61,080 nucleotides of DNA from a virus (lineage: Duplodnaviria; Caudoviricetes), in the IMG/VR virus record IMGVR_UViG_3300038829_000267, positions 1 through 61,080 of that record; one strand, written 5' to 3'. The position numbers and the translations under genes were made by a program. The notes under the pieces were generated by a model. It saw only the letters and a program-made list of their open reading frames with translations. It was not told the DNA's origin and ran no database searches. Shown piece by piece: positions 29,830 through 44,803 of this stretch; the first letter of the stretch is position 1, and every line of letters starts with the position of its first letter.

Positions 29830-30320
29830 CTACCCAGGTCGGGCTCGACGCCTCGCAGTTCAGGCTGCACATCGTGAGGCCGACGCTTCTGCTGCTCGGT
29901 CTCTGGTCGCGACCGGCCGAGGAGTTGGTCATGGGTACGGCCGCGGCGGAGAGTCAGCTCCGGTACGTGCGCCAGGTCGGCGCCGGCCCGGCGCTGGGGC
30001 TCTATCAGTGCGAGCCCGCAACTCACGCGGACATCCTGGCGAACTTCCTGCGCTTCCGCGCACCGTTGGCAGCGACGGTGTCGACGTTGCTGTGCCCTGG
30101 CGTCGGCCGCCTCGAGCAGCTGCAGGGGAACCTTCCGTACGCGACCGCCATCTGCCGGATCCACTACCTGCGGGTGCCGGCGCCTTTGCCCGGCGAGTCC
30201 GACGTCGCCGGCCAGGCCGCCTACTGGCTCGAGCACTACAACGCCGGCGGCAAGGGCACCGTCGCCCACTACGTCTCCGCCTATCGCGCGCTGATCGGCG
30301 CCGCGCCGACGGGGGTCTGA
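29826..30320 (+). CDS. putative endolysin (lysozyme/transglycosylase-like)
   Basis: GTAAAES, GPALGLYQCEPATH, YWLEHYNAGG motifs. Confidence 0.8.
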   Translation: MTTQVGLDASQFRLHIVRPTLLLLGLWSRPAEELVMGTAAAESQLRYVRQVGAGPALGLYQCEPATHADILANFLRFRAPLAATVSTLLCPGVGRLEQLQGNLPYATAICRIHYLRVPAPLPGESDVAGQAAYWLEHYNAGGKGTVAHYVSAYRALIGAAPTGV

Positions 30321-30661
30321 TGGCCGCCAAGGTCCACCAGCGCCAGCCCGGTCACTGGGCCTTCCACTGCCCGGGATGCCGCGAGGACCACCATTTCGCG
30401 GTGCCTCGCTGGGCGCGGGACGGGTCGATCGACCGGCCGACCTTCTCGCCGTCGCTGCTCGTGACCTCTGGCCACTACTGCGCCGGCTTCAACGCCGACG
30501 ACAGCTGCTGGTGCACCCGCAACGCCGAGCACCCTGACGACGCTGTCTTCGGGTGCTACCGCTGCCACAGCTTCGTCCGAGATGGCCGCATCGAGTTCCT
30601 CTCGGATTGCACCCATGCGCTCGCCGGCCAGACCGTCGAGCTGCCGGACTGGGAGACCTGA
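30320..30661 (+). CDS. DUF6527-like Cys/His-rich protein
   Basis: FHCPGC...H, PTFSPSLLV, CHSFVRDGRIEFLSDCTHALAGQTV. Confidence 0.75.
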   Translation: MAAKVHQRQPGHWAFHCPGCREDHHFAVPRWARDGSIDRPTFSPSLLVTSGHYCAGFNADDSCWCTRNAEHPDDAVFGCYRCHSFVRDGRIEFLSDCTHALAGQTVELPDWET

Positions 30662-30664
30662 GTC

Positions 30665-31825
30665 ATGCACACCACCGAAGCCACCGAAGCCGCAGACGTG
30701 GCCGAGCTCGACGACCTGGCCAAGGCCGGTCGTCACGACCGCAACGACGTCGACGAGCGGGGCGTACCCGAGGGCCGGGCCCTGAAGGCGATCGCCCTGG
30801 GCCAGTACGACCCAGCCACGATGCGCGAGTGGTGGGACAACCGCAAGCTGTTGGGCCCAGACCGGATGCTGCCGGGCCACAACGGCTCCTGGAACCACGG
30901 GCCCGGCGCTCGGGCGTGCGAGTACCGCCTCGGGCTGTCCGACGGCGTCTACTTCATCACCTACGGGCAGGACCAGACGACGGGCGTCACCGGCCTCAAC
31001 GGGAAGGAGGCCGGCCGGCCGAACTACGGCAGCTTCCCCGACGGGGCCATGTCCCAGGTGATCCTCGAGGCAGACCTCCGCCTGCAGAAGAACCCGGCCG
31101 ACAAGCAGGCGGAGGCGGTCCGCGCCGGCGCCACCAAGGCGCTGCGGCATTCGCTCGTCTTCTCGGCCCTGTGTGCCGCTCCGGGCTCCCTCGGCGCCGG
31201 CAAAGCCGACAACCTGACGAGCGCGTGCACCGTGCAGGCCTTCGGCGAGCGCGTGCAGCTCAAGCCCTTCACCAACCTCTCGCCGCAGCTCGCCCTGGCG
31301 CTCGGCCTCCAGGTCGACGTCACCCAGATCGAGCACCAGCCCCGCTGCTGGCCGGCGTTCGTCTTCATGCGAGGCGCCGGCGCCACGGTGTTCTCCGCCG
31401 AGGAGCGCTTCGCCCTCCGCCGCCTGGTGCTGCAGGGCGACATCGCCGCGGTGCAGGCGGTGCCGAGCCTGAAGCAGATCCTGGGCGAGCTCCGCATCCT
31501 GCGGCCGCTCGAGATCGCACGCTTCGAGGGCGGCGGCTACGCGGCGCTGCTGGCCAGCCGCAACTGCGAGTCCGTGCCGACCTACGTCACGACCTGGACG
31601 CCGAGGTCTTACAGCTCGCTCGCCGTCGACGGCGACGTGCGCGGCGCCGAGAACATCGACCCGGGCGACTGCACGATCACCGACGACCACGGAGTGTTGA
31701 CCTTCACCGCCACCACCCTGCCGAACGGCCGCTCCAAGTCCCTGACCTTCGACACCCGGCCGCTCGGCCGACTGCTCTTCCGCGTGATCGTCCCGGCCAT
31801 GGGGCCGTTCGAGATCCGCCGGTAA
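30665..31825 (+). CDS. hypothetical protein
   Basis: 386-aa ORF with typical GC3-rich codons, inside the lysis cassette. Confidence 0.7.
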   Translation: MHTTEATEAADVAELDDLAKAGRHDRNDVDERGVPEGRALKAIALGQYDPATMREWWDNRKLLGPDRMLPGHNGSWNHGPGARACEYRLGLSDGVYFITYGQDQTTGVTGLNGKEAGRPNYGSFPDGAMSQVILEADLRLQKNPADKQAEAVRAGATKALRHSLVFSALCAAPGSLGAGKADNLTSACTVQAFGERVQLKPFTNLSPQLALALGLQVDVTQIEHQPRCWPAFVFMRGAGATVFSAEERFALRRLVLQGDIAAVQAVPSLKQILGELRILRPLEIARFEGGGYAALLASRNCESVPTYVTTWTPRSYSSLAVDGDVRGAENIDPGDCTITDDHGVLTFTATTLPNGRSKSLTFDTRPLGRLLFRVIVPAMGPFEIRR

Positions 31826-31849
31826 ACCCGGCTCCCAAGGAGACCAAGA

Positions 31850-32572
31850 ATGGACACCCCTCCGCTCCTCACCACCGTCGGCGCCGCGATCGCCACGATC
31901 CTCCTCCCTCTCCTCACCAGCCAGGTCAAGCGCCTGCCCTGGCCCTGGCTCGCGGGCCAAGGCGTCGTCATCAACGCGGTGCTCTCGGTGCTGGCGTTCG
32001 CCCTGGGCTGGCTCGTCGACGGCGCCACGACCGCTCAGGCCGGGCAGTACCTGTGGACAGCGCTGATCGTCGCGGGGCTCGGGAGTGCCGGCCACTCGGT
32101 GCTGGTGAACGGGCCGGAGAAGCGGAGTCTCGTCGCCGGCGTCCGCCGACGTCGGACAGCTGCTCTGGTGGCGCTGCTGGCTGTCGGCCTGGCGACTGCC
32201 GGCTGCAGCTCGGCACCGGTGCGCATGGTGCGGGCGGTCGAGATCGGCGCCGACCTGCACCGCGAGACCATGATCGCCGCCGGCGCCGCGTCCGTGCCGG
32301 TGCTCGCTGCCGACGGCAGCGTCGCGCGGCCACCGCTGATCGACCAAGTCGAGCTCGAGCAGATCCGCGACGTCGGCCGAAAGACCGAGCTCACCCTCCG
32401 CGGCGCGCAGGCCGCGGTCGACCTGTACCTCGCTGCGCTGCAGCTGAAGGCGGGCGGAGGTGCGGCTGCCGCCGGCGCCGTCGCCGCGGCTGCCGAGCTG
32501 CAGGCGGCACTCATGGACCTGGTGCGGGTCGCCATCCAGATTGGGCTGGAGGTGCACCGTGCAGGTGGGTGA
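31850..32572 (+). CDS. holin-like multi-TM protein fused to a lipobox-bearing domain (spanin candidate)
   Basis: AAGGAG RBS; about 3 TM helices, then RRRR-hydrophobic-TAGC. Confidence 0.6.
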   Translation: MDTPPLLTTVGAAIATILLPLLTSQVKRLPWPWLAGQGVVINAVLSVLAFALGWLVDGATTAQAGQYLWTALIVAGLGSAGHSVLVNGPEKRSLVAGVRRRRTAALVALLAVGLATAGCSSAPVRMVRAVEIGADLHRETMIAAGAASVPVLAADGSVARPPLIDQVELEQIRDVGRKTELTLRGAQAAVDLYLAALQLKAGGGAAAAGAVAAAAELQAALMDLVRVAIQIGLEVHRAGG

Positions 32573-32768
32573 GCTGCTCGCCAGCCTGACCGCGCCGCAG
32601 GCGCTGGCCCTGGTCGATCTGACCATCAAGGCCGGCCAGGCCGTGGCGCACCGCCTGGCTGAAGCCAAGGCCGAGGACCTGGCCGCCCTCCGTGACCAGC
32701 TGCACGCGGTGGTGATCAGCGACACCGACGCGGCGATCGACGTCGGCCGACACCAAGCCGGCGGCTAG
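32559..32768 (+). CDS. small hypothetical protein (spanin-associated?)
   Basis: GGAGG RBS, GTG start, overlaps the previous gene. Confidence 0.55.
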   Translation: MQVGELLASLTAPQALALVDLTIKAGQAVAHRLAEAKAEDLAALRDQLHAVVISDTDAAIDVGRHQAGG

Positions 32769-32986
32769 TCCCCGCAGAACGGACAGAGCATGCCGTCGTC
32801 ACTGCCGGCGGCATCGAACAGGTCCTCTGCCAGCTCTACGGCGAACCGCGCGGCTTCCGGTGTTCCGCGGATCGACCTGAGCAGCGCGGTCGCCTGCTCA
32901 AGCGCCTCGCGCGCACCCGCCTTCTTGATCTCCAGCATGCGAGCACCGAGGGTTAGTGGCTCGACGGTCGATGGGGAGTCGCTCAT
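32765..32986 (-). CDS. hypothetical protein
   Basis: MSDSPSTVEP...LCPFCGD; coupled to the upstream minus-strand gene. Confidence 0.55.
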   Translation of the reverse strand: MSDSPSTVEPLTLGARMLEIKKAGAREALEQATALLRSIRGTPEAARFAVELAEDLFDAAGSDDGMLCPFCGD

Positions 32987-33321
32987 GCCACCGCCTTTCG
33001 TGCGTCTTGCCATCGGCGCCAATGCTCCGCAAGGGTCGACCGCTCGATGCCGAGGTCGCGGGCTTGTCGCAGCGCCCGTGCTGTCTCGGCGAGATCCCGC
33101 CGTTCGTCGCGCCCAGCAAACGTGACGACGTACGCGCGCAGCCGTCGGACGGCAGCGCGCCGGCCGCGGCGCTGCCACCATGTCGACAGGAGTCCTGCCA
33201 GCCAGGCCTCGTGGCGTGAGCGCTCGCCGGCAGGCGCCTTGGCCACGGCCAGCGCGGCCGCCTCGAACACCTCGCGATCGGGCTCGTTCGTCAGCTCGAG
33301 CACCGCCTCGGGGACCATCAA
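32983..33321 (-). CDS. hypothetical protein
   Basis: 112 aa; coupled minus-strand operon. Confidence 0.55.
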   Translation of the reverse strand: MMVPEAVLELTNEPDREVFEAAALAVAKAPAGERSRHEAWLAGLLSTWWQRRGRRAAVRRLRAYVVTFAGRDERRDLAETARALRQARDLGIERSTLAEHWRRWQDARKAVA

Positions 33322-33620
33322 TTGGCGATGGACTCGTTGAGGTTTCGGAGGCGTTCGGCGTCGTCACGGAGCTGGTCGACGGCCCATGGGATCGCGCGGA
33401 ATGCGCTCTCACCGGGACGCAGCCCGCCGTAGAGCCGCGCCAGGTCCTGGATGCCGTTGACGGCGCCCGGGGCGGAATCGAAGTCCTCGCCGACGATCGC
33501 CAGCCCGAGCACGGCGCGCAGGTCGCCGACAAGTTCGTCTCGATCGGCGATCGCCGCGGCGGGGTCAGCGCCGGCTACAAGGTCGGTGATGAGCTTCGCG
33601 ACTCGCTCCTTCGGGGTCAT
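33318..33620 (-). CDS. hypothetical protein
   Basis: MTPKERVAKL...; coupled. Confidence 0.55.
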   Translation of the reverse strand: MTPKERVAKLITDLVAGADPAAAIADRDELVGDLRAVLGLAIVGEDFDSAPGAVNGIQDLARLYGGLRPGESAFRAIPWAVDQLRDDAERLRNLNESIAN

Positions 33621-33994
33621 GACTGAACCTCGGACAGCTCGCTGAGGATGACCGCGCACTCAGCGCGCAGGCGGGCGGCGAAGGCCTCCCGTGTCGCGCG
33701 GACGCCTTGCACCAGCTCGGCGACGTTGATGCCTCTGAGCCGCGCGTCCTGCAGCTCGAGCGCCAGCTTCCTGATCGTGTAGCGCCAGTGGCGCCGCATC
33801 GCGAGCGGCAACATCGGCGTGTCGATGGCCGGCTCGGCAAGCTGCTCGAGCCGGTGCTCACAGAGCGTGATCAGCCGAGCGATCCGGCCGCGGCGGTATT
33901 CGACGGGCCCAACGATCGCCTTGTGGGCGGCGCGCAGAGACGCCATGTCCTCGTCGGTGAAGCGCAGGGCGTTGACTTGCTCCATGTCGACCAT
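33617..33994 (-). CDS. hypothetical protein
   Basis: AAGGAG RBS before MVDMEQVNAL; helical. Confidence 0.6.
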   Translation of the reverse strand: MVDMEQVNALRFTDEDMASLRAAHKAIVGPVEYRRGRIARLITLCEHRLEQLAEPAIDTPMLPLAMRRHWRYTIRKLALELQDARLRGINVAELVQGVRATREAFAARLRAECAVILSELSEVQS

Positions 33995-34107
33995 CGCGGT
34001 CTCCTTCTCGCCGGCGTCGCCCGGCAGCGGCATCAGTTTACGACCACTCGAACGACGAGGCGCCTGCCTCACTCGAACCGCAGCGTGATCCGCTCGCCGA
34101 GCGCCGC

Positions 34108-34956
34108 TTACGAGGGCGCGTGCTTCCCGTGCTCTTCGTGCATCAAGCGGTCCATCTCGTCCACGAAGCCAAGGAGCTGGGACTCCAGCACGATCTCGTG
34201 CGGGCAAGCCATGCGGTCAAGGATCGCGCACCCGTCGTCGAAGGCGCCCTTCAGCTCCGGCGCCGACGGCGGCGCCACGATGAGATGCGCCTTGAAGGGC
34301 TCCCGGCTCGCCCTGAGCAAGGTCCCGCGTCCCAACCACTTGGTGGCCTTGTCCAGGATGGACTGCGGCTCGAGGAGGTCGAAAGACACGGCGTCGCAGG
34401 CGTGCCAGAGCCCGTTCTTGTAGGCCAAAGGGAAAGTGTGGGTGACTCGCAGGTCTCCCACGATCTCCTTTGACTCCATCCTCGACAGCAGCTTCCTGTC
34501 GGATAGCGGTCGCCGGACAGCGTTGAGCACTTGGGCATCGTCGCGCCGCGCGTTCGCCTGATCGGCATGGCGCTCGACGTAGCGGGTGAATAGACGCGCC
34601 AGGAGCGCGTCGAGGTCCTGAGTCAGGCCGGCCCCGCCGGTCACGAACTGGACGGCGGAGTCGTCGTGCGGGAACACGCGGGCGATGCAGTCCTCCGCTG
34701 TCCGCGGAGCTCGAAGGGGGTGCTTCTCCAGGTCCCTTGCTAGTCGGCGAAGGCCCTTCTCCACGCCGTCGAGCGTGGCCCTCAGGCCTCGTTTGTCGAA
34801 GTGTCCGAAGAAGTCGGTGAGACGCGAGACATGAGTTGAAACCTTGAACAGTAGAGACCCGCTCTGCGGGCAGTACAGGACCACGCCTACGTTGGCAAAT
34901 TCGGCGGCAACGAGGTCCGGGATGTATCTGATGAGCGCGAAGCTGTAGGTCTTCAT
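34108..34956 (-). CDS. DUF3037-domain protein
   Basis: YSFALIRYIPDLVAAEFANVGVVLYCP N-terminus. Confidence 0.85.
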   Translation of the reverse strand: MKTYSFALIRYIPDLVAAEFANVGVVLYCPQSGSLLFKVSTHVSRLTDFFGHFDKRGLRATLDGVEKGLRRLARDLEKHPLRAPRTAEDCIARVFPHDDSAVQFVTGGAGLTQDLDALLARLFTRYVERHADQANARRDDAQVLNAVRRPLSDRKLLSRMESKEIVGDLRVTHTFPLAYKNGLWHACDAVSFDLLEPQSILDKATKWLGRGTLLRASREPFKAHLIVAPPSAPELKGAFDDGCAILDRMACPHEIVLESQLLGFVDEMDRLMHEEHGKHAPS

Positions 34957-35756
34957 TGCAGCGCTCTCCTCACGGCGTTGACGAATGGCTTCCTCTCGCG
35001 ACGTGCGCGCTCGAGGCGCTCCGTCACCAGCGCCAGTATGCGCTCGTCTCGCAGGTCATGCGGAATCGGCGAGAAAAGACGCTGCACCGCCAGGGGAGTC
35101 AGGCGCGCCAGGTCCTTGGCGAACCCGTCCAGCTCTGGGGCAAGCCTTGTCCGCAGGATAGCAGCCGCCACCGGGTGCGTGCCGATGCAAGCCAGCGCCG
35201 GCCCAATCCAGTCGCCGCCCCCGCCTCCAAGCGCGTAGCAGAAGGCGAATGCGCTCTCGTGGTCGATAGCGACGATGCGCCCCTGGTGATTCAGCAGGTT
35301 GGGCTTGTCGAGCCTTCGGTCGGCGTGTTCAACCAGCATGTCGAAGGCGACGACGCGCGAGGCACCGTCGGCATCATCGAGCCGAACTCTTGAATCGTGG
35401 CCCCATGTCGTCGTGTCCCTGAGGTAGCGCGAGCCGAACATCGGCTGCGTCGCAACGGCGAGCATGCTGCCGACCCTTCCCGGCACCGTGGCCACAAGGC
35501 CATCCGCGAGCGAGACGAGGCAGGGTTCGGGTGTTCGGATCCTGAAGTAGTTGGCCAGTAGGGCGCCGAGGATCTCGAGGCATCGAGCCGGTGGCTCCAG
35601 GAATTTCGCCACCACCTCGAACGGAGGTTCTCCGGGCGATTCGCACTCGAGCAGACAGGGGCAGGTGCGACCGCTCGGGAAGGGGACATCCCTCCACGCG
35701 ACCGCGGTCACGGCCCGCATGGGCATAGGCAGGGATGGCGACCTAAGTCTTACCAT
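34953..35756 (-). CDS. HipA-like Ser/Thr kinase
   Basis: GRTCP loop, VVAKF, FGSRY, AFDMLVEHADRR..PNLL, IVAIDHESAF; start could be 35756, 35726 or 35720. Confidence 0.85.
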   Translation of the reverse strand: MVRLRSPSLPMPMRAVTAVAWRDVPFPSGRTCPCLLECESPGEPPFEVVAKFLEPPARCLEILGALLANYFRIRTPEPCLVSLADGLVATVPGRVGSMLAVATQPMFGSRYLRDTTTWGHDSRVRLDDADGASRVVAFDMLVEHADRRLDKPNLLNHQGRIVAIDHESAFAFCYALGGGGGDWIGPALACIGTHPVAAAILRTRLAPELDGFAKDLARLTPLAVQRLFSPIPHDLRDERILALVTERLERARRERKPFVNAVRRALQ

Positions 35757-35992
35757 TCAGGACTCAACTTTCGCTTCTCCGCCCACCTAAGCGTCTCGAT
35801 CAACTCTCGGCGCTCGTCCTTCGTGTGGGGTCCGAGCTCGAACAGGATCGCCCGCGTGTCCTGCGCGAGCCGCGTGTAGAACTCGGCCGGCGGCACGTAC
35901 GGCTCCTGGGAGGCCACCAGGTCGGCGAGCGTCAAGACCGCGCCTCCCTGGTCGTTGTCCTCGAGCAGCAGAATCCGCGGACCGTTGCTCAT
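35750..35992 (-). CDS. hypothetical protein
   Basis: 80 aa MSNGPRILL...; overlaps neighbours. Confidence 0.5.
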   Translation of the reverse strand: MSNGPRILLLEDNDQGGAVLTLADLVASQEPYVPPAEFYTRLAQDTRAILFELGPHTKDERRELIETLRWAEKRKLSPEW

Positions 35993-36316
35993 CACGGCCC
36001 ACCCCGCGGCGCCCACAGCCCAACGCCGCCCTGCCGCGCCGTCGCCTCGAGCGCGTCGTACGCGGCCGCCCGGTCGCACTTTCCCTTGTGCCAGGTCACC
36101 CCGAGCCCGCTCGAGATGATCGCGGCACCAAGGTCGCTGCCGGCCTCGAGGTAGTACTCGACCCGTACAGAGCCCAGCCCCGGGCTCGCCTCCAGCGTGA
36201 TCACCAGGTCGGTCACGTCCTCGCCCGGTGTCGGCGTCCAGCAGGCGGAAGTGGGCGGCCGGGTCGTCGGGGTCCGGGTCGGTGACCTCGACGCGGGCGG
36301 GGATGGCGGCGGGCAC
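35992..36316 (-). pseudogene. probably frameshifted gene with thermonuclease (SNase)-like C-terminus
   Basis: DLGAAIISSGLG...ALEATARQGGVGLWA; removing one base near 36223-36226 joins RLLDADTG to EDVTDLVITLE. Confidence 0.45.
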
Positions 36317-36317
36317 C

Positions 36318-36857
36318 TCAGTCGTCCTTCACCCGAAGGGTCAGACGAAGCGTCGGGCCTGGCTCGGCCTCATACGCCGCCGCGAAGGCTCCCTCCTCGA
36401 CCGCCAAGCGCGAGGTGAAGATCCGAGAGCGCTTCTCCTCGACCTGTCCAGACACCGGCGCGGCTGTCGCCAGCACCTTGCCGGCGGACACGAACTCGAT
36501 CAGGACGTCGACCAGCTTGTCGTGGGAGGGCTGAACCGCAACGGTCGCGAGCACGTCGAACACCGCGCTCTTCTTCCCGGCGACCTTCTTCGACTTCCGC
36601 TTCAGCATCACCGAGATCGCCTGAAAGTAGGCGTTCTCGCAGATGTAGCCGTCGACGTCCTTGAGCAGGCGCGAGCCGTTCTCGGGGAAGCGCAGGAGCG
36701 GCGGCGCGGGGAACTCGAGGATCATCGGCGATTGGAACTGCTGCTGAACCGCGCCCTGGGTCGCTACGACCTGGGCGTTGCCCGCACCCAAGGGCGCGAT
36801 CAGGGCTGCCGACCACAGCGCGAGCAGTCTGGCTAGGCGGCGTCTTCGGTACGGCAT
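36318..36857 (-). CDS. secreted/periplasmic protein of unknown function
   Basis: MPYRRRRLARLLALWSAALIAPLGAGNA signal peptide; beta-rich body. Confidence 0.7.
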   Translation of the reverse strand: MPYRRRRLARLLALWSAALIAPLGAGNAQVVATQGAVQQQFQSPMILEFPAPPLLRFPENGSRLLKDVDGYICENAYFQAISVMLKRKSKKVAGKKSAVFDVLATVAVQPSHDKLVDVLIEFVSAGKVLATAAPVSGQVEEKRSRIFTSRLAVEEGAFAAAYEAEPGPTLRLTLRVKDD

Positions 36858-36976
36858 GGTCGTCCCCCCTTGGTTGAATAGGTGCCGGCCGACGCGAAAA
36901 TCTGACACGCCTGGGCCGCCGGAAACGTCTATCGGAAGCGGGATGCTACACCCGGCAGGTGCCTAGAGTGCGAGCC

Positions 36977-37792
36977 ATGACCAACCAACCTCGCGCGTCC
37001 CTCACTGTCGTCGGCACGGGCATCGCCGTCGGCGCCCAGACCACCCTCGAGGCTCGACTGGCGATCGAGCAGGCCGATCGGCTCCTGCACCTGGTGGCCG
37101 ACCCGGTGGCGGAGGCCTGGCTCGGCCGACGCCACTCCGCCGGGGAGAGCCTGCGCGACTGCTACCGGGAGGGCCGGCCGCGCCGCGACTCCTATGCCGA
37201 GATGGTCGCGCGGGTTCTGGCCGCCCTCGCCGCCGGCGGCCGCGTGGTCTGGGCGACATACGGACACCCGGGCGTCTTCGCCGGCGCCTGCCACCAGGCC
37301 CTTCAGGCGGCGAGGGCCGCCGGCTATCCGGCGCGCATGCAGGCTGGTGTCGGTGCCGACAGCTGCATCTGGGCAGACCTCGAGGTGGATCCTGGGCAGC
37401 ACGGCGTGCAGCAGTGGGAGGCCACGGACTGGCTGTTACGGCGCCGCGGCTGGGACGCGACGTCGCTGCTCGTGCTCTGGCAGGTCGGGGCGATCGGGCA
37501 GGGAGGTTGGAGCGAGTCGGGGTGGGACATGCGCCGCGGCCTGGGCGTGCTGGCTCGGCGCCTCCTCGAGCAGTACCCCGCCCGGCACCAGGCGTGCCTC
37601 TACGAGGCAGCGGTGTCGCCGGCGCTGCGGCCGCGCCGTGACCTGGTGGCGATCGAGGACCTCGCCGGCGCCGCCGTGAGCACCGCGACGACCCTGGTTG
37701 TCTTCCCGCTGCCCCCGCGCCCGTGGGACAGATCTGTAGCAGATGATGTCGGTCTGTCAGATTTCGGTGGCGAGCGGCACTATACGGGGTAG
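36977..37792 (+). CDS. borosin-type SAM-dependent peptide alpha-N-methyltransferase (tetrapyrrole methylase fold)
   Basis: SLTVVGTGI, ADP, CY-x5-R-x3-Y (Y63/R69/Y73), YGHPGVF, GVGADSCIWADLEVDP, EATDWL, LWQVG, LYEAA match OphMA/SonM-type enzymes as I recall them. TAGAGT lies 7 nt before the ATG (possible leaderless transcript). Confidence 0.88.
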   Translation: MTNQPRASLTVVGTGIAVGAQTTLEARLAIEQADRLLHLVADPVAEAWLGRRHSAGESLRDCYREGRPRRDSYAEMVARVLAALAAGGRVVWATYGHPGVFAGACHQALQAARAAGYPARMQAGVGADSCIWADLEVDPGQHGVQQWEATDWLLRRRGWDATSLLVLWQVGAIGQGGWSESGWDMRRGLGVLARRLLEQYPARHQACLYEAAVSPALRPRRDLVAIEDLAGAAVSTATTLVVFPLPPRPWDRSVADDVGLSDFGGERHYTG

Positions 37793-37850
37793 GGGTCACT
37801 GTCGGCCCCTGGTATGGGGCTCGCCCAGTCTGGCCCCTGGAGTCGCACCA

Positions 37851-37979
37851 ATGGACCTCGACCAGCTCCTCGACCTTGCCGACGCCCCAACGCTCGATGC
37901 AATCGAGGCCGCCCAGGACCTCGCCTTGGCGGCGCCGGCAGGCCACGCACCGCTGCTGATCATCCTCGCTGACGAATGA
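37851..37979 (+). CDS. 42-aa peptide, candidate borosin precursor
   Basis: GGAG RBS; MDLDQLLDLADAPTLDAIEAAQDLALAAPAGHAPLLIILADE; ATGA overlap with the next gene. Confidence 0.6.
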   Translation: MDLDQLLDLADAPTLDAIEAAQDLALAAPAGHAPLLIILADE

Positions 37980-38569
37980 CACCCGCTGCCCGAGCGCTCG
38001 CCATTCGTGGCGCGCTCGAGCTCGCCGGTGTCGAGTCCACCGTTGAACCCGGCGGGCTCGGTCGCGTGGCCGAGCTCGCCGGCGCGATGGGAGAGCATCC
38101 GCTCGGCCTGGGCTGCATGGCCGTCAGCGAGCGGTTTGGCGAACGAGCGACAGACGCGGCCGAGCTCGGTGCTCCAACGACCGAGGTGGTCCTCGTGCGT
38201 CTGGCCGGCTCCTGGTACGTGAGCGATGGCGAGGAGCTCGAGCGCCAAGGTCTGGCTGGCCGCGAGCTCACGACCATCCTGCCTGCCTCGATCGCGGGTC
38301 AGACGTTGCGCCTGCTCGACCTCGCTCTAGAGGGCGACCCTAGGGCAACCCGACCGACCATCAAGCGGGTTGTCACCGCCTGTTGCGGCGTCGTCGAGGC
38401 GGCGACGTCCTATGAATTCGAGCCCGCCGGCGGGGGCGTGGCTGTGCGCTACCGGTATTGGTTCCTGGCCCACCACGGGTGGCCGACCGTCTCGCCCGAC
38501 GAAATGCTGCGGCGCCGGCTAATGCGGCTTGCCGACCAGCTCTCGAGGTTTCGAGATCAGCTCGACTGA
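37976..38569 (+). CDS. hypothetical protein, possible PAS-like C-terminal domain
   Basis: LAGRELTTILP...LLDLALEG followed by beta strands; coupled start. Confidence 0.55.
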   Translation: MTPAARALAIRGALELAGVESTVEPGGLGRVAELAGAMGEHPLGLGCMAVSERFGERATDAAELGAPTTEVVLVRLAGSWYVSDGEELERQGLAGRELTTILPASIAGQTLRLLDLALEGDPRATRPTIKRVVTACCGVVEAATSYEFEPAGGGVAVRYRYWFLAHHGWPTVSPDEMLRRRLMRLADQLSRFRDQLD

Positions 38570-38916
38570 CCGGACGGTCCCGGGCCGAGCCGCTTCTTCA
38601 GCTCGGTGAACTCGCGCTCGACGACATCGAGCATCTTGTGAATCGCCAGCAGGCGCTCCGCCTCCTCATCGCCCGCCGCCCTTGCTTCGGCGGACAGGGC
38701 ATCTGCCGTGCCGAGCAGATAGTCCGCTGAGATCTTGAGCTCGCGGCAGAGCCGCACCAGGGCGTCGGGATCAGGCGAGCGCCGCCCCGAGGCCCAGTGA
38801 GACAGGGTGCTTGGGTCGACGTTGATCGCCCGGGCGATCTCGGCCCGCGACGCGCGCCCTTTGGTGACGGCCTCGTCAAGGGCCTCATCGAGTCGCCGGG
38901 CGCCAGTCCATGACAT
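38557..38916 (-). CDS. XRE-family HTH repressor (cI-like)
   Basis: SRAEIARAINVDPSTLSHWASGRRSP...ISADYLLG; divergent from cro-like gene. Confidence 0.9.
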   Translation of the reverse strand: MSWTGARRLDEALDEAVTKGRASRAEIARAINVDPSTLSHWASGRRSPDPDALVRLCRELKISADYLLGTADALSAEARAAGDEEAERLLAIHKMLDVVEREFTELKKRLGPGPSGQSS

Positions 38917-38950
38917 AGCGCCAAGTCTGCGCGCACTTTCGTGCACTTGC

Positions 38951-39000
38951 TGTTGACAATTCGCCAACACTGACCTAGATTCGTTGACGAAATGTCAACG
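38951..39000 (+). promoter_or_regulatory. early rightward promoter with two 19-bp palindromic operators
   Basis: TTGACA (38953-38958), 17 bp, TAGATT (38976-38981); operators TGTTGACAATTCGCCAACA (38951-38969) and CGTTGACGAAATGTCAACG (38982-39000). Confidence 0.85.
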
Positions 39001-39240
39001 CCACTTGCCGATGTGCTCGCCCGTTGCGGCATCACCCAGTCCGATGTGGCTCTCGCGCTGGGTGTAGACAACTCGACCATCAGTCACAAGCTCGCCGGTC
39101 GGCGACGCTGGTCTCAGCCGGAGGTCACCGTCCTGCTCGCCCTGATCCGGCGGAAGGACCCGATGGTCGGCTACGACGATCTGTTCGCGGCCTCCGAGGT
39201 GGAGGCCGAAGCGCTCGTTACAGACCCGGTGGAGGCGTAG
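38992..39240 (+). CDS. Cro-like HTH regulator
   Basis: ITQSDVALALGVDNSTISHKLAGRRRW. Confidence 0.88.
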   Translation: MSTPLADVLARCGITQSDVALALGVDNSTISHKLAGRRRWSQPEVTVLLALIRRKDPMVGYDDLFAASEVEAEALVTDPVEA

Positions 39241-39552
39241 ATGCCCGCTCTCCAGGCCCGCGAGGCAAACGCCGCCGTCGGGATGGTCATGGACGAGCGG
39301 TGGCGCCAGCTCCGCCTGTATCCCATCCAGCACGACGACACCCACGACGCAGGCGAGATCGCCCAGGCCGCCGCTGCGTACGCCCTCGCCTCGGCCGCCG
39401 AGACCGACCTCGAGCGCGAGATCGCCGTCGACACTTGGCCCTGGGAGCTGGACGACTTCAAGCCGTCGACTCCACTCGCCGACCTGATCCGCGCCGGCGC
39501 GCTCCTGCTTGCCGAGATCGAGCGCCGCCTCCGGGCGGGAGAGGAGGCCTAG
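39241..39552 (+). CDS. conserved phage hypothetical protein
   Basis: ERWRQ...HDD, AAAYAL, WPW...FKP...LIRAGALLLAEIER. Confidence 0.75.
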   Translation: MPALQAREANAAVGMVMDERWRQLRLYPIQHDDTHDAGEIAQAAAAYALASAAETDLEREIAVDTWPWELDDFKPSTPLADLIRAGALLLAEIERRLRAGEEA

Positions 39553-39555
39553 GCC

Positions 39556-39837
39556 GTGGTCACCACCAACCACGACGGCGCGGAGCGCTGCTGCTGCGAC
39601 CGGTGCTGCCGCAAGGACCCCAGCCGGGGGCTGACTGCCGCTCAGGACGCGCTGCTGGTCGACCTGGTGATTGCCGGCTCCGACGGGATCAGCAGTGCCG
39701 ACTTCGATAGCGGGATGACCGGCCGCAGCTGGCGGCCACTGGTCGAACGCGGCCTGGTCGAGTTCAAGCCGGCGACGGCGCCGGCCACGTTCGTCGTCAC
39801 CACTGCGGGACGCGAAGTACTCGCCGCGAGGAGCTGA
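39556..39837 (+). CDS. hypothetical protein (possible winged HTH)
   Basis: LTAAQ...LVERGLVE...VTTAGREVL. Confidence 0.55.
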   Translation: MVTTNHDGAERCCCDRCCRKDPSRGLTAAQDALLVDLVIAGSDGISSADFDSGMTGRSWRPLVERGLVEFKPATAPATFVVTTAGREVLAARS

Positions 39838-39840
39838 CCC

Positions 39841-41058
39841 GTGGCGCCCCCATTCACCAGCCCCGAGGACCGACCGATGACCGCCGAACCGAAATCCGCC
39901 TTGCTGCCGTCTCGCCTGGAGGCTCTCGCCACCATCACGCTCCAGCACGGAGGCCACCCGAGCTTCGCCGCCGGGCACTGCGCACTGGAGACGGTCGCAT
40001 GGCTGGCCGGCGGCCCGCACACCGATCACCCCGACTGCGTCTCGCCGGTGATCGCGGCGTTCGTCCGGAACTGGAACGACGGCCTCCTGACCGACGATGA
40101 CCGGAACCGCCTGCTGCGTCCGATCCTGCCTGAGCTGGTCGGTACTGCGACGACCGTCGCGGACGAGGAGACGCGGGCCTGGCTGCTGGTGGATTGGCTG
40201 GCGCGTGTACAGGCCCCGGCGTGGCTGAGCCTCACTGCTGGCCTGGCGCCGCACGCTGCGGTCCTCAAGGCGCTGCCGGCGATCGCCGACGCGGCCAGCG
40301 CAGCGACGGCCCGCGGGCCACTGGCCGCCGCCAGGGCCGCCGCCAGGGCCGCCGCCAGGGCCGCCGCCAGGGCCGCCGCCTGGGACGCCGCCTGGGACGC
40401 CGCCTGGGACGCCGCCTGGGCCGCCGCCAGGGACGCCGCCAGGGACGCCGCCAGGGCCGCCGCCAGGGCCGCCGCCTGGGACGCCGCCTGGGCCGCCGCC
40501 AGGGACGCCGCCAGGGACGCCGCCAGGGCCGCCGCCAGGGCCGCCGCCAGGGCCGCCGCCTGGGACGCCGCCAGGGCCGCCGCCTGGGCCGCCGCCAGGG
40601 ACGCCGCCAGGGACGCCGCCTGGGACGCCGCCAGGGCCGCCGCCAGGGCCGCCGCCTGGGCCGCCGCCAGGGACGCCGCCAGGGACGCCGCCTGGGCCGC
40701 CGCCAGGGACGCCGCCAGGGACGCCGCCAGGGACGCCGCCAGGGACGCCGCCTGGGCCGCCGCCAGGGACGCCGCCAGGGACGCCGCCAGGGACGCCGCC
40801 AGGGACGCCGCCAGGGACGCCGCCTGGGCCGCCGCCAGGGACGCCGCCAGGGACGCCGCCAGGGACGCCGCCAGGGACGCCGCCAGGGACGCCGCCTGGG
40901 CCGCCGCCAGGGACGCCGCCAGGGACGCCGCCTGGGCCGCCGCCAGGGACGCCGCCAGGGACGCCGCCAGGGACGCGCTCGCACCTACGGTGCTCGCGCT
41001 CCAGGCCTCCGCCGTCGAGTTGATCCGCACGATGTGCGTCGTCGGCCGGGCGGCCTGA
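39841..41058 (+). CDS. phage protein with AA(R/W)(A/D) tetrapeptide repeats
   Basis: Globular N-terminus (HCALETVAWLAGGPHTDHPDCVSPVIAAF) then repeat; start may be 39877. Confidence 0.8.
   Translation: MAPPFTSPEDRPMTAEPKSALLPSRLEALATITLQHGGHPSFAAGHCALETVAWLAGGPHTDHPDCVSPVIAAFVRNWNDGLLTDDDRNRLLRPILPELVGTATTVADEETRAWLLVDWLARVQAPAWLSLTAGLAPHAAVLKALPAIADAASAATARGPLAAARAAARAAARAAARAAAWDAAWDAAWDAAWAAARDAARDAARAAARAAAWDAAWAAARDAARDAARAAARAAARAAAWDAARAAAWAAARDAARDAAWDAARAAARAAAWAAARDAARDAAWAAARDAARDAARDAARDAAWAAARDAARDAARDAARDAARDAAWAAARDAARDAARDAARDAARDAAWAAARDAARDAAWAAARDAARDAARDALAPTVLALQASAVELIRTMCVVGRAA
40327..40974. repeat. tandem array of 54 x 12-bp units GCCGCC[A/T]GGG[A/C]C
   Basis: Read directly; 648 bp; only unit positions 7 and 11 vary. 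Confidence 0.95.
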
Positions 41059-41061
41059 GCC

Positions 41062-41559
41062 ATGGGCATGCCTCTCGCCGAGCAGTTCGAGCACCTGGGC
41101 GGATCCCGGGTCACGTTCCCCTCTGTCCGCCGCTGTCGCGTCTGCGGCTGCACCGACGCCGACTGCAGCAGCTGCATCGAGCGCACGGGCATGCCCTGCT
41201 CGTGGGTCGAGCCGGATCTCTGCTCCGCGCGCGAGGAGCGGCCCGAGGCGGACGTCGACCTCCAGGCCGCCGCGGTCGAGGTCGCGACTCCTGCCGGCGC
41301 TCCCGCGCTGACCGCCCTCCCGTGGAAGGTGGGGGCGGACGCGATCTTCGACCTGGCGGTCGAGGCCTCCGATGGGCTGGCGGTGGCCTACATCCTCGAC
41401 TGCCCTGACGCCGTCGACGTCGCTCGCCTCCTCGCTGCCGCACCTGACCTCCTGGCCGCCGCCGAGGCCGCGCTGGAGCTCATTGCCAGACCGCCTGTAC
41501 ACGCGACCGGGCCGGTCATGCGCCAGCTCCAGGCGGCCGTCGCCAAGGCGAGGGGCTGA
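41062..41559 (+). CDS. hypothetical protein with Cys-rich zinc finger
   Basis: CRVCGCTDADC...CSWVEPDLCSA; ARLLAAAPDLL. Confidence 0.7.
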   Translation: MGMPLAEQFEHLGGSRVTFPSVRRCRVCGCTDADCSSCIERTGMPCSWVEPDLCSAREERPEADVDLQAAAVEVATPAGAPALTALPWKVGADAIFDLAVEASDGLAVAYILDCPDAVDVARLLAAAPDLLAAAEAALELIARPPVHATGPVMRQLQAAVAKARG

Positions 41560-41562
41560 CCG

Positions 41563-42366
41563 ATGGCCCTCACCACCAAGCAGATCCCTGTCGCCGTGCT
41601 TGAGGTCCTCGCGGCCGGCACGTCGAGCGGCAATGCCTTCTTCCTGCCGCCTGGCCAGCTCGACCGGAAGCTGTATCAGGCCGTCGACCAGGTGCTGCAG
41701 GCGCTCGGCAGCAAGTGGAATCGGTCGCGGTCCGGACACGTGTTCGGCGGTCTGGTTCCCGGGGAGGCCGTCGAGGCCGCTGATCGCATAGCCGCCGCAG
41801 TTGCCAGCGGCAGCTACGACGACCCGAAGGCGCTCGCCTTCTTCGAGACGCCATCCGCGCTCGCGGCGCAGCTGGTTGCGGAGGCCGGCGTCCGCCGAGG
41901 TGACCGCTGCCTCGAGCCATCGGCCGGCGAGGCCGCCATCGCGAGGTGGTTGGCCGCCGCGGGCGGGCTCGACAACCTCGTCTGTGTCGAGGTGAATGCC
42001 CACCGCCAGCAGAGGCTCATCCAGAAGGGATTTAACCCGGTCTACGGCGGTGACTTCCTGTCGATGCAGCCGCCGACCGATGACGTCGACCGCTTCGCGC
42101 GGATCGTGATGAACCCGCCTTTCTCGCTGCCCGGGCAATCGCAAGCCGACATCGAGCACGTGACACACGCGCTGCGCTTCCTTGCTCCGGGCGGCAGCCT
42201 CGTTGCGGTGATATCGCGCGGCGTGCTCTTCCGCGGAAACGCGCGCACCCGAGACTTTGTCGAGCTGGTGAATCGCCACAAGGGTTCTATCGGCCTGCTG
42301 CCGGATGACGCCTTCGAGGTCTCGGGCACCAGCGTGCGGACCGCGGTTCTTCGGGTGGGGTGCTGA
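41563..42366 (+). CDS. N6-adenine-type DNA methyltransferase (class I SAM)
   Basis: FFETP, LEPSAG, GDFL, IVMNPPF. Confidence 0.85.
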   Translation: MALTTKQIPVAVLEVLAAGTSSGNAFFLPPGQLDRKLYQAVDQVLQALGSKWNRSRSGHVFGGLVPGEAVEAADRIAAAVASGSYDDPKALAFFETPSALAAQLVAEAGVRRGDRCLEPSAGEAAIARWLAAAGGLDNLVCVEVNAHRQQRLIQKGFNPVYGGDFLSMQPPTDDVDRFARIVMNPPFSLPGQSQADIEHVTHALRFLAPGGSLVAVISRGVLFRGNARTRDFVELVNRHKGSIGLLPDDAFEVSGTSVRTAVLRVGC

Positions 42367-42369
42367 CCG

Positions 42370-42939
42370 ATGGCCAGCATCTACCTCGCCGCCCGCTACG
42401 GCCGCCGCGCCGAGCTCCAGGAGGTCGCCGCCCGCCTGCGCGACTTCGGCCACGCGATCACCAGCCGGTGGATCCACGGCGGCCACGACCTGGTCGACGA
42501 CGGCTCGCCGGCCTTTGCCGCCGCCAGCGCCCGGTTCGCCGAGGAGGACTGGTCCGACCTCGTGGCGGCCGACGTGTTCATCGCCTTCACCGAGGCGCCA
42601 GGGGCCCCAGGCCGCGGCCGCGGCGGTCGCCGCGTCGAGCTCGGCGCCGCACTCGCGCTGCGCAAGACGGTCATCGTCGCCGGCCCCCGCGAGAACATCT
42701 TCGCCTTCCTCCCGCAGGTCATCTGGTTCGGCACGACCGAGAGCCTGCTGGCCCTGGCGCCGTTCATCGCCGCCACGCCGGCCTGGACACCTCGGACCAC
42801 GTACCGCAACCTGACCGTCTACGGCTGCAACTGCGTCGTCACCGCTGTCGAGACGACCTCCCGCTCCATTCGCCGCGTCGCCGGCTCCTGCCCCAAGTGC
42901 GTCGCATCCACGGCCGCCTGGGCCGAGCGGAGCGTCTGA
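42370..42939 (+). CDS. nucleoside 2-deoxyribosyltransferase-like protein
   Basis: IYLAARY, ITSRWI, D..D...AD, GGRRVELGAA. Confidence 0.7.
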   Translation: MASIYLAARYGRRAELQEVAARLRDFGHAITSRWIHGGHDLVDDGSPAFAAASARFAEEDWSDLVAADVFIAFTEAPGAPGRGRGGRRVELGAALALRKTVIVAGPRENIFAFLPQVIWFGTTESLLALAPFIAATPAWTPRTTYRNLTVYGCNCVVTAVETTSRSIRRVAGSCPKCVASTAAWAERSV

Positions 42940-42942
42940 GCC

Positions 42943-43203
42943 ATGACCCCCGCGCAGCGCGCCGAGCTCGACAGCTACCGGGTGAAGGTCGCCCAGGTGC
43001 AGCACCTCGAGCAGTTCATCGCCTGGCTGATGGAGCAGGACATCTACCTGGGCGAGCCATCCGGCCCGAGGTCGCTGGCCTACGCCAGCGTGCACGTTCC
43101 CCACCTCGTCGCGCGCTACCTCGGCATCACACCGGCCGAGCTGCAGCGCATGCAGACCGCCCTGTTCGAGTACGACCGCGACTCGTCGCGGGATGACAGC
43201 TGA
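42943..43203 (+). CDS. hypothetical protein
   Basis: ORF in the early operon. Confidence 0.55.
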   Translation: MTPAQRAELDSYRVKVAQVQHLEQFIAWLMEQDIYLGEPSGPRSLAYASVHVPHLVARYLGITPAELQRMQTALFEYDRDSSRDDS

Positions 43204-43224
43204 CCCCGAGAGAGGACCCGGCAC

Positions 43225-43545
43225 ATGACACGCACATGGTCGATCGACCTGCACCCCGCCCTGCTCTTCGGCTTCGCCTGCAAGATCGGGCGGACGCTCG
43301 GGCACCTGCCCGACGGCACCAAGCTGATCGCCAATGACTACCTGGCGATCGAGGCGCACCTCGGCCCGCTGGTGATCCGCCTGCGCTGCTGCTGGTGTCC
43401 CAGCTGCTGCGCCCCAAAGGCCGCAGCCGGCGAGACCCAGGGCCAGCAGCAGGCCGCATCTGCCCCGGCTGCCCAGCCCGACCTGCGGCTCGTCTGGGCC
43501 GGCCCGCTGGGCGTCCGCCAGCCCCGCCGCGAGGAGCTCAACTAG
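43225..43545 (+). CDS. hypothetical protein
   Basis: GAGG RBS. Confidence 0.5.
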   Translation: MTRTWSIDLHPALLFGFACKIGRTLGHLPDGTKLIANDYLAIEAHLGPLVIRLRCCWCPSCCAPKAAAGETQGQQQAASAPAAQPDLRLVWAGPLGVRQPRREELN

Positions 43546-43548
43546 GCC

Positions 43549-43824
43549 ATGCGCGTTTGGGTGCTCACCACGCGCCACCACCGCGAGCAGGCCGCCCTCG
43601 GCTACGCCGAGTACGCGCTGGCGTGCCGCGGCTTCCTCGCCGCCGGCGAGCCCACCCGCGACAACCGGAGCCGCGGTCGCTTCGTGCTCCGCACCTGGTG
43701 GCTCGTCGACCCGGGTTGCTCGATCGACGAGGAGCTGGTCACCGCTGAGGTGACGCGCCGGCAGGTCGAGCGCCTGCTCGCCGCCCGGCGGGAGTCCCGC
43801 CGTACCAGTCGGAGGGCTGCTTAG
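43549..43824 (+). CDS. hypothetical protein
   Basis: Tightly packed ORF. Confidence 0.5.
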   Translation: MRVWVLTTRHHREQAALGYAEYALACRGFLAAGEPTRDNRSRGRFVLRTWWLVDPGCSIDEELVTAEVTRRQVERLLAARRESRRTSRRAA

Positions 43825-44079
43825 ATGCGGCACTCCCCGCGGGCTCTCCTCCTCCACATCGCGGCTCGCCACGCGGCGGCCAGCCTCGCGCTCGAGCAGG
43901 GCGAGCCGCGGCGGCTCCAGGTCCTCTCGTACCGCGCGCTCGAGGCGATGCCGCGGATCCGCGGCCGCCGTCCGGCGATAGCGCCGCGCCTGCCGGTCGA
44001 GACGTACGGCGCGCTCCTCGAGCGGCTGCCCAGCCTGGTGACGACGGCGCGGCAGCGGAGAGCCGGAGAGCTGACGTGA
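43825..44079 (+). CDS. hypothetical protein
   Basis: GGAGG RBS; adjacent start. Confidence 0.5.
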   Translation: MRHSPRALLLHIAARHAAASLALEQGEPRRLQVLSYRALEAMPRIRGRRPAIAPRLPVETYGALLERLPSLVTTARQRRAGELT

Positions 44080-44227
44080 TGACCCTTCCTGTCGCCGTGC
44101 ACCGCGTGACGTTCGCCGCCGCCCTCGCCGGTGCGGCGCTGGCTGCCGCCCTGCTGATCCTGGTCGGGATCCTGGTGCACGCGCTCTGCGGGCGCTGGCC
44201 TGGCGACTCTGGGAACTCTGAGGAGCA

Positions 44228-44803
44228 ATGAGCATGGGACGCACTCTCTCGTCGGGCGCGGGCTCGGGTAAGCCACAGGACTGCTTCGGATTGGATTCCG
44301 ACCGGCACGAGCGCCTGCTGGGGGCTCTCCGCGAGTCGGCTCTCGACGGCGCCGCCAAGTCGATCGCCGGCGAGCTGACCCTCACGGCCAACACGGTCTA
44401 TCACCAGGTCGACGGCCAGCTCGGCACCTGCTTCCACAAGGTGATGCTCTGGCTCGACGGTGCGCTGCGCGGCAAGGGGCAGACGCCCGACGGCCGGCAG
44501 AAGGCCCTGGCGCCCCTCCACCTGCTGAACGAGCTGTACCTGATCGAGGCTGGTGTCCAGGCCAACCAGGGGGCGGTCAACGCAGCGCTCGGACGACTCC
44601 TGCTGAATGTCGGGCGCGTGACCTCGGTCACCTCGGAGGCGGCTGCGGACGGTTCCTTCACGCCCCCGGAACAGCAGGCGATCCTCCGCGCCCTGGTCCC
44701 GCTGGTCGCCGAGATCCCAGCCCTGGCCGGCCTCATCGGCATCACCGTGCCGCCGTCGGCCGCCGCCACTGACGGCACTGACGACCGGGTGACCGTCTCG
44801 TGA
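44228..44803 (+). CDS. putative CII-like regulatory protein
   Basis: GAGGAG RBS; N-terminal HTH-like segment, C-terminal AAADGSFTPPE helical bundle. Confidence 0.5.
   Translation: MSMGRTLSSGAGSGKPQDCFGLDSDRHERLLGALRESALDGAAKSIAGELTLTANTVYHQVDGQLGTCFHKVMLWLDGALRGKGQTPDGRQKALAPLHLLNELYLIEAGVQANQGAVNAALGRLLLNVGRVTSVTSEAAADGSFTPPEQQAILRALVPLVAEIPALAGLIGITVPPSAAATDGTDDRVTVS

Follow-up and report, generated by a model that had tools for sequence, protein, structure and literature searches.

Does a temperate tailed phage carry an enzyme that methylates peptide backbones and, if so, what could this enzyme act on? The question is raised by IMGVR_UViG_3300038829_000267, a provirus in IMG/VR that is 61,080 bases long and has an estimated completeness of 75%, which we analysed at its full length (the window). 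One of its genes, P0001, had been read in an initial annotation as a borosin methyltransferase of the stand-alone type. Backbone N-methylation makes peptides protease-resistant and able to cross membranes, and borosin alpha-N-methyltransferases (NMTs) are, to our knowledge, its sole ribosomal route. We confirm that P0001 belongs to this family. The locus as a whole is best explained by a phage-borne NMT of the SonM type that was captured without its precursor and works with two ORFans found downstream, a reading to which we give a probability of about 70%. The three open reading frames (ORFs) are:

36977..37792, + strand: P0001, a 271-aa stand-alone borosin-family alpha-N-methyltransferase (SonM/OphMA-like)
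37851..37979, + strand: P0002, a 42-aa ORF, MDLDQLLDLADAPTLDAIEAAQDLALAAPAGHAPLLIILADE, candidate minimal substrate peptide
37976..38569, + strand: P0003, a 197-aa ORFan whose start overlaps the P0002 stop as ATGA; GC content at codon positions 1/2/3 (GC1/2/3) = 0.75/0.54/0.78

A phmmer search of all PDB sequences with P0001 gave 26 distinct matches at E<=1, and 25 of these are borosin NMTs, with E-values from 4.6e-44 to 1.7e-34 over query residues ~5-260. They comprise six SonM variants (4.6e-44 to 2.7e-43), thirteen OphMA/OphA constructs (~7e-42 to 1.6e-40), two dbOphMA constructs and four MroMA constructs (1.7e-34). The 26th match is noise (E 0.39), and no CobA, CysG, CbiL, RsmI or Dph5 chain is found among the matches at E<=1. 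Structure prediction, which the initial annotation had proposed as a check, points the same way. The AlphaFold2 model, based on a 24-row alignment, has a mean predicted local distance difference test score (pLDDT) of 86.4, and when it is compared with PDB using Foldseek, all 33 matches listed (ranks 1-47) are SonM, OphA, dbOphMA or MroMA, with TMq 0.78-0.82 and E-values from 1.5e-26 to 2.6e-22.

We also placed P0001 in a quick IQ-TREE phylogeny of 91 rows, consisting of 81 NMT rows and 10 outgroup TP_methylase domains. The NMT input was the best 80 of 585 confirmed genome loci plus a relative from IMG/VR (L002, see below); L037 was dropped from the tree, having a stop inside its high-scoring segment pair. 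The outgroups come from three of the same genomes and carry the NCBIfam labels CobA (3, one of them CobA-like), CobI (2), CobM (2), CobJ (1) and RsmI (2). YabN and Dph5 are absent from the tree and were judged by hidden Markov model (HMM) and PDB scores alone. The split between the NMT rows and the outgroups has a Shimodaira-Hasegawa-like approximate likelihood ratio (SH-aLRT) support of 98. P0001 falls within the NMTs: its subclade consists mostly of Acidobacteriota and Thermoanaerobaculia, and its sister is L007 (support 88, unstarred). The tool warned of long branches and of the odd amino-acid composition of P0001. The initial annotation had named clustering with tetrapyrrole or diphthine methylases as the result that would speak against it. 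PDB search, fold and tree all place P0001 with the borosin NMTs, apart from the outgroups, and the assignment therefore stands.

P0001 could be suspected of being an ordinary tetrapyrrole methylase (CobA, CysG or a precorrin methylase), a YabN/MazG-type enzyme or a diphthine methylase mis-read as a borosin enzyme: Pfam reports just the general TP_methylase family (1e-14), and relatives carry source annotations such as 'YabN' and 'precorrin methylase'. Nonetheless, the NCBIfam scores are far under their cut-offs, with YabN at 25.3 bits vs 525 and precorrin methylases at 15-18 bits vs 163-391 (for example, precorrin-3B 17.6 vs 391 and CobI 15.2 vs 163). P0001 reads YGHP where those families have xGDP, and the provirus contains neither a MazG domain nor cobalamin genes. 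Together with the PDB matches and the tree, these results led us to reject this explanation, to which we leave next to no probability.

The residues expected of an active borosin NMT are kept. The translation of P0001 contains the triad Y63-x5-R69-x3-Y73 and the motifs YGHPGVF (95-101), ADLEVDP (133-139), EATDWL (148-153) and LWQVG (167-171), all as first described. In the phmmer alignment with SonM, Y63, R69, Y73, Y95, F101, E148, W168 and Q169 of P0001 correspond to Y58, R67, Y71, Y93, F99, E146, W166 and Q167, respectively. According to PMC8429565, the SonM changes Y58F, R67K and Y71F cost the enzyme 14- to 98-fold in catalytic efficiency and R67A leaves it inactive; Y93 and F99 take part in cofactor binding. 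Across the aligned columns of 80 related NMTs, Y95, G96, H97, P98, E148 and Q169 are found in 80/80, R69 and Y73 in 78/80 each and Y63 in 65/80.

By comparison, Y95, H97, the W168-Q169 pair and the Y63/R69/Y73 triad occur in 0/10 of the outgroup domains, which at the YGHP columns read GD(P/L) in eight cases and GMP or GTP in the two RsmI domains. The motifs first described are more than chance resemblances. The proposed OphMA-like spacing agrees with the OphA mutants Y66F, R72A and Y76F named in PDB titles, and the x5 spacing between Y63 and R69 is shared by the 23 aligned relatives of P0001. This spacing is the family norm, and the interest of the gene lies more in its location and its missing partner.

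The gene itself is intact. As a start, the ATG at 36977 agrees better with the N-termini of 23 homologues than does an upstream GTG at 36959 (+6 residues); the frame is open just 33 codons upstream. Its GC1/2/3 of 0.77/0.56/0.86 is the coding signature of an element of ~70% GC, with GC3 as in phage core genes. The NMT domain covers residues ~8-260 of 271, with no counterpart of OphMA 323-375, the region matched by the binding-domain profile described below, in accordance with the stand-alone architecture without fused clasp or core that had been claimed. An identical protein is also encoded on a 257,860-nt contig in a public protein collection; otherwise the top identity to any database protein is 51%.

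The type IV split system SonM/SonA of Shewanella oneidensis (PDB 7LTC, 7LTE; product shewanellamide A) resembles the locus in having a stand-alone NMT of ~260-270 aa. P0001 aligns with SonM over its full length (E 4.8e-44), shares its fold (TMq 0.79-0.80) and has the eight equivalent residues listed above. By contrast, SonM is encoded beside SonA, whose five-helix borosin binding domain (BBD) docks on the enzyme, whereas the window has no BBD ORF. SonM also carries an insertion of 3 residues that moves its Arg further from the first Tyr (Y-x8-R, compared to x5 in P0001), E173 as its top lock where P0001 has Q175, and S124 where P0001 has G126. Finally, SonM is chromosomal and lies among signalling genes, while P0001 is found inside a provirus. 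The fungal type I fused enzymes OphMA and dbOphMA match P0001 through their NMT domain (E ~7e-42, query 5-250) and the Y-x5-R-x3-Y spacing; they differ in carrying the C-terminal clasp/BBD and the core on one self-methylating chain, where P0001 stops ~10 residues past the NMT domain.

The place of the NMT gene in the provirus is given by the following landmarks:

3313-5139: TerL
5394-7142: portal
8285-9718: major head protein
18385-24780: tape measure
34108-34956, - strand: DUF3037 protein (Pfam 5.7e-19; PADLOC PDC-M66B 3e-57)
34953-35756, - strand: HipA_2 kinase (Pfam 2.5e-9; PADLOC PDC-M66A 7.4e-29)
36318..36908, - strand: P0004, a 196-aa ORF with a signal-peptide-like N-terminus in its translation, divergent from the NMT gene
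38557..38970, - strand: cI-like helix-turn-helix (HTH) repressor (Pfam HTH_3 1.5e-10; PHROG transcriptional regulator/repressor families)
38992..39240, + strand: Cro-like HTH protein that opens the rightward early operon (Pfam HTH_31, HTH_3; PHROG repressor families)
59923-61080: tyrosine integrase

The DUF3037 and HipA_2 genes overlap by 4 nt and correspond to the two components of PDC-M66, a candidate defence system in PADLOC. They belong to a leftward block that comes after the tail and late genes, and the NMT cassette lies between this block and the cI/cro-like switch. The cI-like gene is convergent with P0003 and overlaps it by 13 nt. P0004, for which we found no Pfam, PHROG or PADLOC family, is probably outside the cassette. 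Given the structural genes, the integrase and the cI/cro flank, we take the element to be a temperate phage and the NMT to be one of its accessory genes, located well inside it and in the region where phages of this kind keep conversion and exclusion genes. The sole sigma-70-like site in 35500-39400 is at 38953-38981 (+). No promoter or terminator was found for the NMT operon with a sigma-70-consensus scan, which is weak in DNA of 70% GC.

The two ORFs that follow the NMT are closely packed. P0002 starts after a gap of 58 nt, with GGAG 8 nt upstream of its ATG, and consists of an acidic N-terminal part, a Pro/Gly linker and a C-terminal LLIIL-ADE (it ends in PLLIILADE). The codon-position GC switches frame just as P0002 and P0003 need. 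Both were called as genes in the public protein collection, where each is the only member of its cluster and occurs on the three contigs that also carry the NMT. The AlphaFold2 model of P0003, made without an alignment, has a pLDDT of 38.4 and is unusable. P0003 shows a weak SRPBCC-like hint (Pfam Polyketide_cyc2, E 0.036; an Atlas match with TM 0.36, the Atlas model having pLDDT 0.35).

The cassette was also found in a related phage. Two DNA runs from a bioreactor metagenome, in a study other than that of the groundwater source, contain ~10% of the words of 36300-38600, and gave contigs at >=80% likeness to the window:

36881-37161: NMT start and 96 nt upstream; 16 differences and 1 gap in 281
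37804-38061: P0002 in full plus the P0003 start; 6 differences, 1 gap in 258
37867-38162: the larger part of P0002 plus the P0003 start; 7 differences in 296
38297-38664: end of P0003; 54 differences in 368
38749-39113: immunity region; 46 differences in 365

In the contig over 36881-37161, the remaining 191 nt are unlike the window upstream of 36881. Further on, the related phage joins 39553 to 41061 and 41554 to 42362, and is thus without the repeat-protein and DNA methyltransferase genes found there in the window (listed below). The P0002 stretch is its best conserved piece. From this contig coverage and the variable neighbours, we conclude that the NMT start, P0002 and at least both ends of P0003 travel together. 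Among the public runs listed for this stretch, none was an RNA run.

These observations suggest how the system may have arisen and how it would work. Tree and gene order make it most likely that the gene was taken from a cellular type IV borosin locus without the precursor and then diverged fast, ending up in a temperate tailed phage as an accessory gene (a 'moron'). The gene would now be part of a three-gene cassette with the two co-oriented ORFans. By analogy with SonM and OphMA, P0001 would act as a homodimer, with S-adenosylmethionine (SAM) bound under Y95 and F101 and the target amide held between Y63/Y73 and R69. The methyl group would be moved to the backbone nitrogen of a peptide or protein supplied in trans, possibly iteratively from the N- to the C-terminus.

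If the substrate is encoded in the cassette, P0002 would be the best candidate, a proposal that we make tentatively and as the lesser chance. Its position mirrors that of six gammaproteobacterial precursors, which start ~60-100 nt after their NMT, and its end, a hydrophobic run followed by acidic residues, resembles the ends of gammaproteobacterial precursors (CMLIPAEDDD, CLVVPAENDE). A run of >=5 residues of I/L/V/F/M in the last 12 residues, as in P0002, is found in 4 of the 923 six-frame pieces of the window. A complex prediction with two copies of P0001 and one P0002, made without controls, gave 0.29 and 0.00 (mark, 0.32), which we count neither for nor against the proposal. Taken further, the cassette could be a minimal phage-borne borosin system, in which the NMT would modify the BBD-less 42-aa precursor and the 197-aa protein would serve as carrier, immunity or processing partner, the lysogen's product being a backbone-N-methylated peptide that acts as a weapon, a signal or an anti-phage effector. 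We regard this complete version as rather unlikely.

What a partner of a split borosin NMT normally looks like can be read from the related loci. In 47/81 of them, the NMT is accompanied within 2.5 kb by an ORF of ~70-100 aa that combines a conserved leader (consensus ...FL..L..DP.....F..DP...M..AGLS.EE..LL.SGD...IR..LGDE) with a variable, often hydrophobic C-terminus. A profile of 26 such ORFs matches the SonA chains of the SonM-SonA structures (1.5e-14 to 3.7e-13) and OphMA 323-375 (~9e-5); these neighbour ORFs are therefore members of the borosin binding domain family. Six more loci, from Xanthomonadales and Alteromonadales, have a divergent precursor branch directly downstream of the NMT, bringing the total to 53/81. 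Two other signals were discarded. TALE proteins top the PDB list of the BBD profile by summed weak repeat matches with 0 stretches passing, which is an artefact, and a '52-locus' neighbour cluster considered as a partner family is a single-linkage mix of signalling proteins (Ser/Thr kinase, cyclase with GAF and FHA, TPR-LuxR).

Among the related loci we also observed two unusual precursor layouts. In five loci, all beside NMTs of one well-supported subclade, a SonA-like leader is followed by short repeats in extended arrays, with units like HPQIFPQVV, PPQYVV and AGAVAPQ(V/I)A (L030 3845-4816, L034 9-215, L038 4402-4965, L059 4270-4917 and L035 4376-4924). These look like multi-core split borosins. 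In three others, two tandem SonA-like precursor genes lie upstream of a single NMT (L007 4287-4933, L010 4264-4888 and L070 4532-4992).

A number of results weigh against the explanation that we prefer, and most of them concern this partner. An HMM of 42 SonA-like ORFs, run over all six-frame pieces of the 61-kb window, gave a best E of 1.7, and a model of the second (gammaproteobacterial) precursor family gave 2.5. P0002 scores -1.3 and -0.9 bits against the two precursor models, and hhalign against the BBD profile returned probabilities of 0.2% for P0002 and 0.3% for P0003. P0001 itself is also without a BBD. With no BBD ORF in the window, the locus therefore lacks the partner that defines type IV split clusters, namely an adjacent SonA-like precursor. 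Docking of the BBD has been called crucial to how type IV enzymes recognise their substrate (10.1101/2021.12.24.474128). The 'split' label given by the initial annotation thus applies to the stand-alone 271-aa enzyme and not to its surroundings, since no SonA-like BBD precursor is found beside it or elsewhere in the provirus. P0001 would presumably need a substrate in trans, although the canonical SonA-like one is absent from the provirus. The hydrophobic run of P0002 was picked after seeing P0002 and is shown by 5/50 of the precursor-family ORFs. Beyond itself, P0002 has no relatives in the protein database search; P0003 found self only in 5.8e9 proteins, and its matches in 1.84e9 representatives were two repeat-protein artefacts. 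P0002, P0003 and P0004 have no match in the 81 related loci (best E 0.46), a PDB sequence search with P0002 or P0003 returned nothing, and degenerate DNA patterns for the two P0002 ends found no match in IMG/VR. Conservation of P0002 and P0003 is thus seen in the related-phage contigs alone, which are short and have an unplaced gap, and which would support, rather than prove, selection. These results leave room for another explanation, in which the host chromosome encodes, at another place, a SonA-type precursor that the phage NMT would modify, so as to hijack a host borosin pathway or complement it, and P0002 and P0003 are unrelated accessory genes. The nearest tree neighbours (L007, L013, L075, L043 and L044) all have adjacent SonA-like precursors, so the ancestral enzyme recognised a BBD, and 10.1101/2024.01.09.574750 offers distal precursors as one way to account for 733 NMTs to which no precursor is assigned. 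Nonetheless, the tight P0002-P0003 layout after the NMT recurs where other neighbours were lost or swapped, which suggests a functional unit, and the long branch of P0001 suggests adaptation away from the ancestral partner. We consider a host precursor unlikely.

The remaining points on the contrary side concern the enzyme itself, and bear on a further possibility: that the gene is a decaying or repurposed passenger which kept the fold and lost or changed its methyltransferase activity, perhaps to become a peptide-binding or regulatory protein. Around ADLEVDP, the sequence of P0001 is AGVGADSCIWADL, compared to PG(I/V)SAEDCLFADL in the family consensus. In class III methyltransferases we take the PG(I/V)S-AEDCLFAD stretch to contact SAM; the altered loop could so weaken or change the activity of P0001. 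At the columns that are >=90% identical among the 80 other NMTs, P0001 keeps 52/60 and deviates at 8, a number that is tied third-highest of 81, compared to a family median of 2. Five of these deviations (P123A, S126G, E128D, D129S and L131I) cluster in this stretch, and S126G falls where 80/80 relatives, and also SonM (S124), have Ser. At 1.11 changes per column vs a median of 0.33, P0001 has a long end branch, with its composition flagged, and the passenger explanation is also in line with the lack of a partner precursor in the window. Accordingly, the initial annotation's statement that P0001 has the same downstream motifs as OphMA holds in part: YGHPGVF is intact, and the DCLFAD/SAM-loop stretch is altered and reads DSCIWAD. 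YGHP and DCLFAD are the two motifs by which the antiSMASH BorosinMT rule detects borosin NMTs (10.1101/2021.12.24.474128). The residues of the altered stretch are not discussed in the main text of PMC8429565. On the other hand, two positions of the DCLFAD-stretch motif are A and W in SonM, so part of the motif tolerates change. The frame is intact with a GC3 of 0.86 like phage core genes, the 5' part of the NMT is ~94% identical in the related phage, and Y63, R69, Y73, Y95, H97, F101, E148, W168 and Q169 are all kept. We consider the passenger explanation improbable.

A phage-borne NMT without a BBD partner has only partial parallels. The survey 10.1101/2024.01.09.574750 describes precursor-less split NMTs and BBD-less Legionellales clusters, which share with P0001 the type IV size and the lack of a recognisable BBD partner; it explains precursor-less NMTs by new architectures, distal precursors or a non-borosin function, and reports nearby phage integrases, as a mobile-element association, for Shewanella and Legionella clusters. 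P0001 differs in that it is not close to the sole Coxiellaceae row of the tree, while its Acidobacteriota and Thermoanaerobaculia neighbours have precursors, and in that it lies inside a phage genome rather than merely near an integrase.

The only other viral relative that we found, L002, is a P2-like phage contig from IMG/VR with an NMT of 38% identity (E 2e-47), encoded as:

5416-6780, + strand of L002: a single ORF that joins a SonA-like leader (36 bits, E 2.5e-13) to the NMT by an acidic linker with many D-I/V/L-D motifs

Like P0001, it is a borosin-family NMT in the accessory region of a temperate phage. The ORF lies between gpA-like replication and gpQ-like portal genes and adjoins a weakly AAA-like ORF of 437 aa. 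In contrast to the unfused P0001, it has a SonA-like leader fused at its N-terminus, and the two phages are unrelated (the P0001 phage is siphovirus-like, L002 P2-like). The fusion resembles the 'type 0' layout of 10.1101/2024.01.09.574750, but on a phage. The interval between gpA and gpQ of P2-like phages is an anti-phage defence hotspot according to Rousset et al. (PMC9122126). The location of L002 in this hotspot and of P0001 by PDC-M66 and the immunity switch is consistent with an accessory, conflict-related role. For P0001, this role would probably be lysogenic conversion, for either competition or defence, a speculative assignment that we make because it is in line with the PDC-M66 neighbours, the position of L002 and the precedent of sublancin. 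Sublancin is a RiPP (a peptide made by the ribosome and modified after translation) encoded on the Bacillus SPbeta prophage.

Such cases look very rare. No match to P0001 was found by tblastn in 50,697 phage records, and there is no PHROG family for it. A motif-plus-tblastn scan of 2.9 million IMG/VR contigs gave 15 pattern matches, one of which was another NMT contig (L002); the two patterns used miss some members of the family, so this count is a lower bound. No close NMT relatives were found in IMG/VR with a single-protein search or in JGI metagenome contigs. A full-text literature search for borosin with prophage returned no related report, the supplementary lists of borosin surveys being outside its reach, and phages come up in 10.1101/2024.01.09.574750 only through nearby integrases. 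As far as searched, P0001 is a new divergent member of a known family, and the arrangement, phage-borne with a BBD on neither partner and with ORFan companions, is new.

The nearest TerL relatives, at <50% identity, are in phages of Halomonas, Klebsiella and Ralstonia, a megablast of 30000-45000 against phage records gave no matches, and no tRNA genes were found in the window. Four further genes were annotated:

30320-30661, + strand: Cys/His-rich 113-aa ORF among the late genes (DUF6527 match, 2.3e-6)
39841-41058, + strand: Ala/Arg/Asp(/Trp) four-residue-repeat protein, 405 aa, with a 12-nt unit repeated x54 (92% match, array 40326-40976)
41563-42366, + strand: DNA methyltransferase-like gene (best match to PHROG families 1.1e-38) that the related phage lacks
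42370-42939, + strand: 189-aa ORF with a weak nucleoside 2-deoxyribosyltransferase match (1.3e-4, below the Pfam cut-off)

The 12-nt repeat array (40326-40976) has a local GC of 77%, and its opposite strand and other frames are open too, giving spurious long ORFs. We looked at the repeat protein as a possible repeat-core substrate and dropped it, since the related phage keeps the NMT region without 39553-41061.

P0001 is divergent from its family, and the substrate and biological role given here are put forward as proposals. If the enzyme acts on a host precursor or is inactive, it would be an ordinary orphan NMT, of a kind already counted in hundreds. If the minimal-system reading is true, a backbone-N-methylated RiPP would for the first time be known from a virus, and BBD-independent recognition for the first time from the NMT clade of P0001. 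Trans-acting enzymes that work on short substrates are sought as tools; if the 42-aa peptide is the substrate, a phage NMT without a bulky binding-domain partner could reveal a much smaller recognition element. More generally, a phage-carried NMT would lengthen the list of natural-product enzymes moved between hosts by temperate phages.

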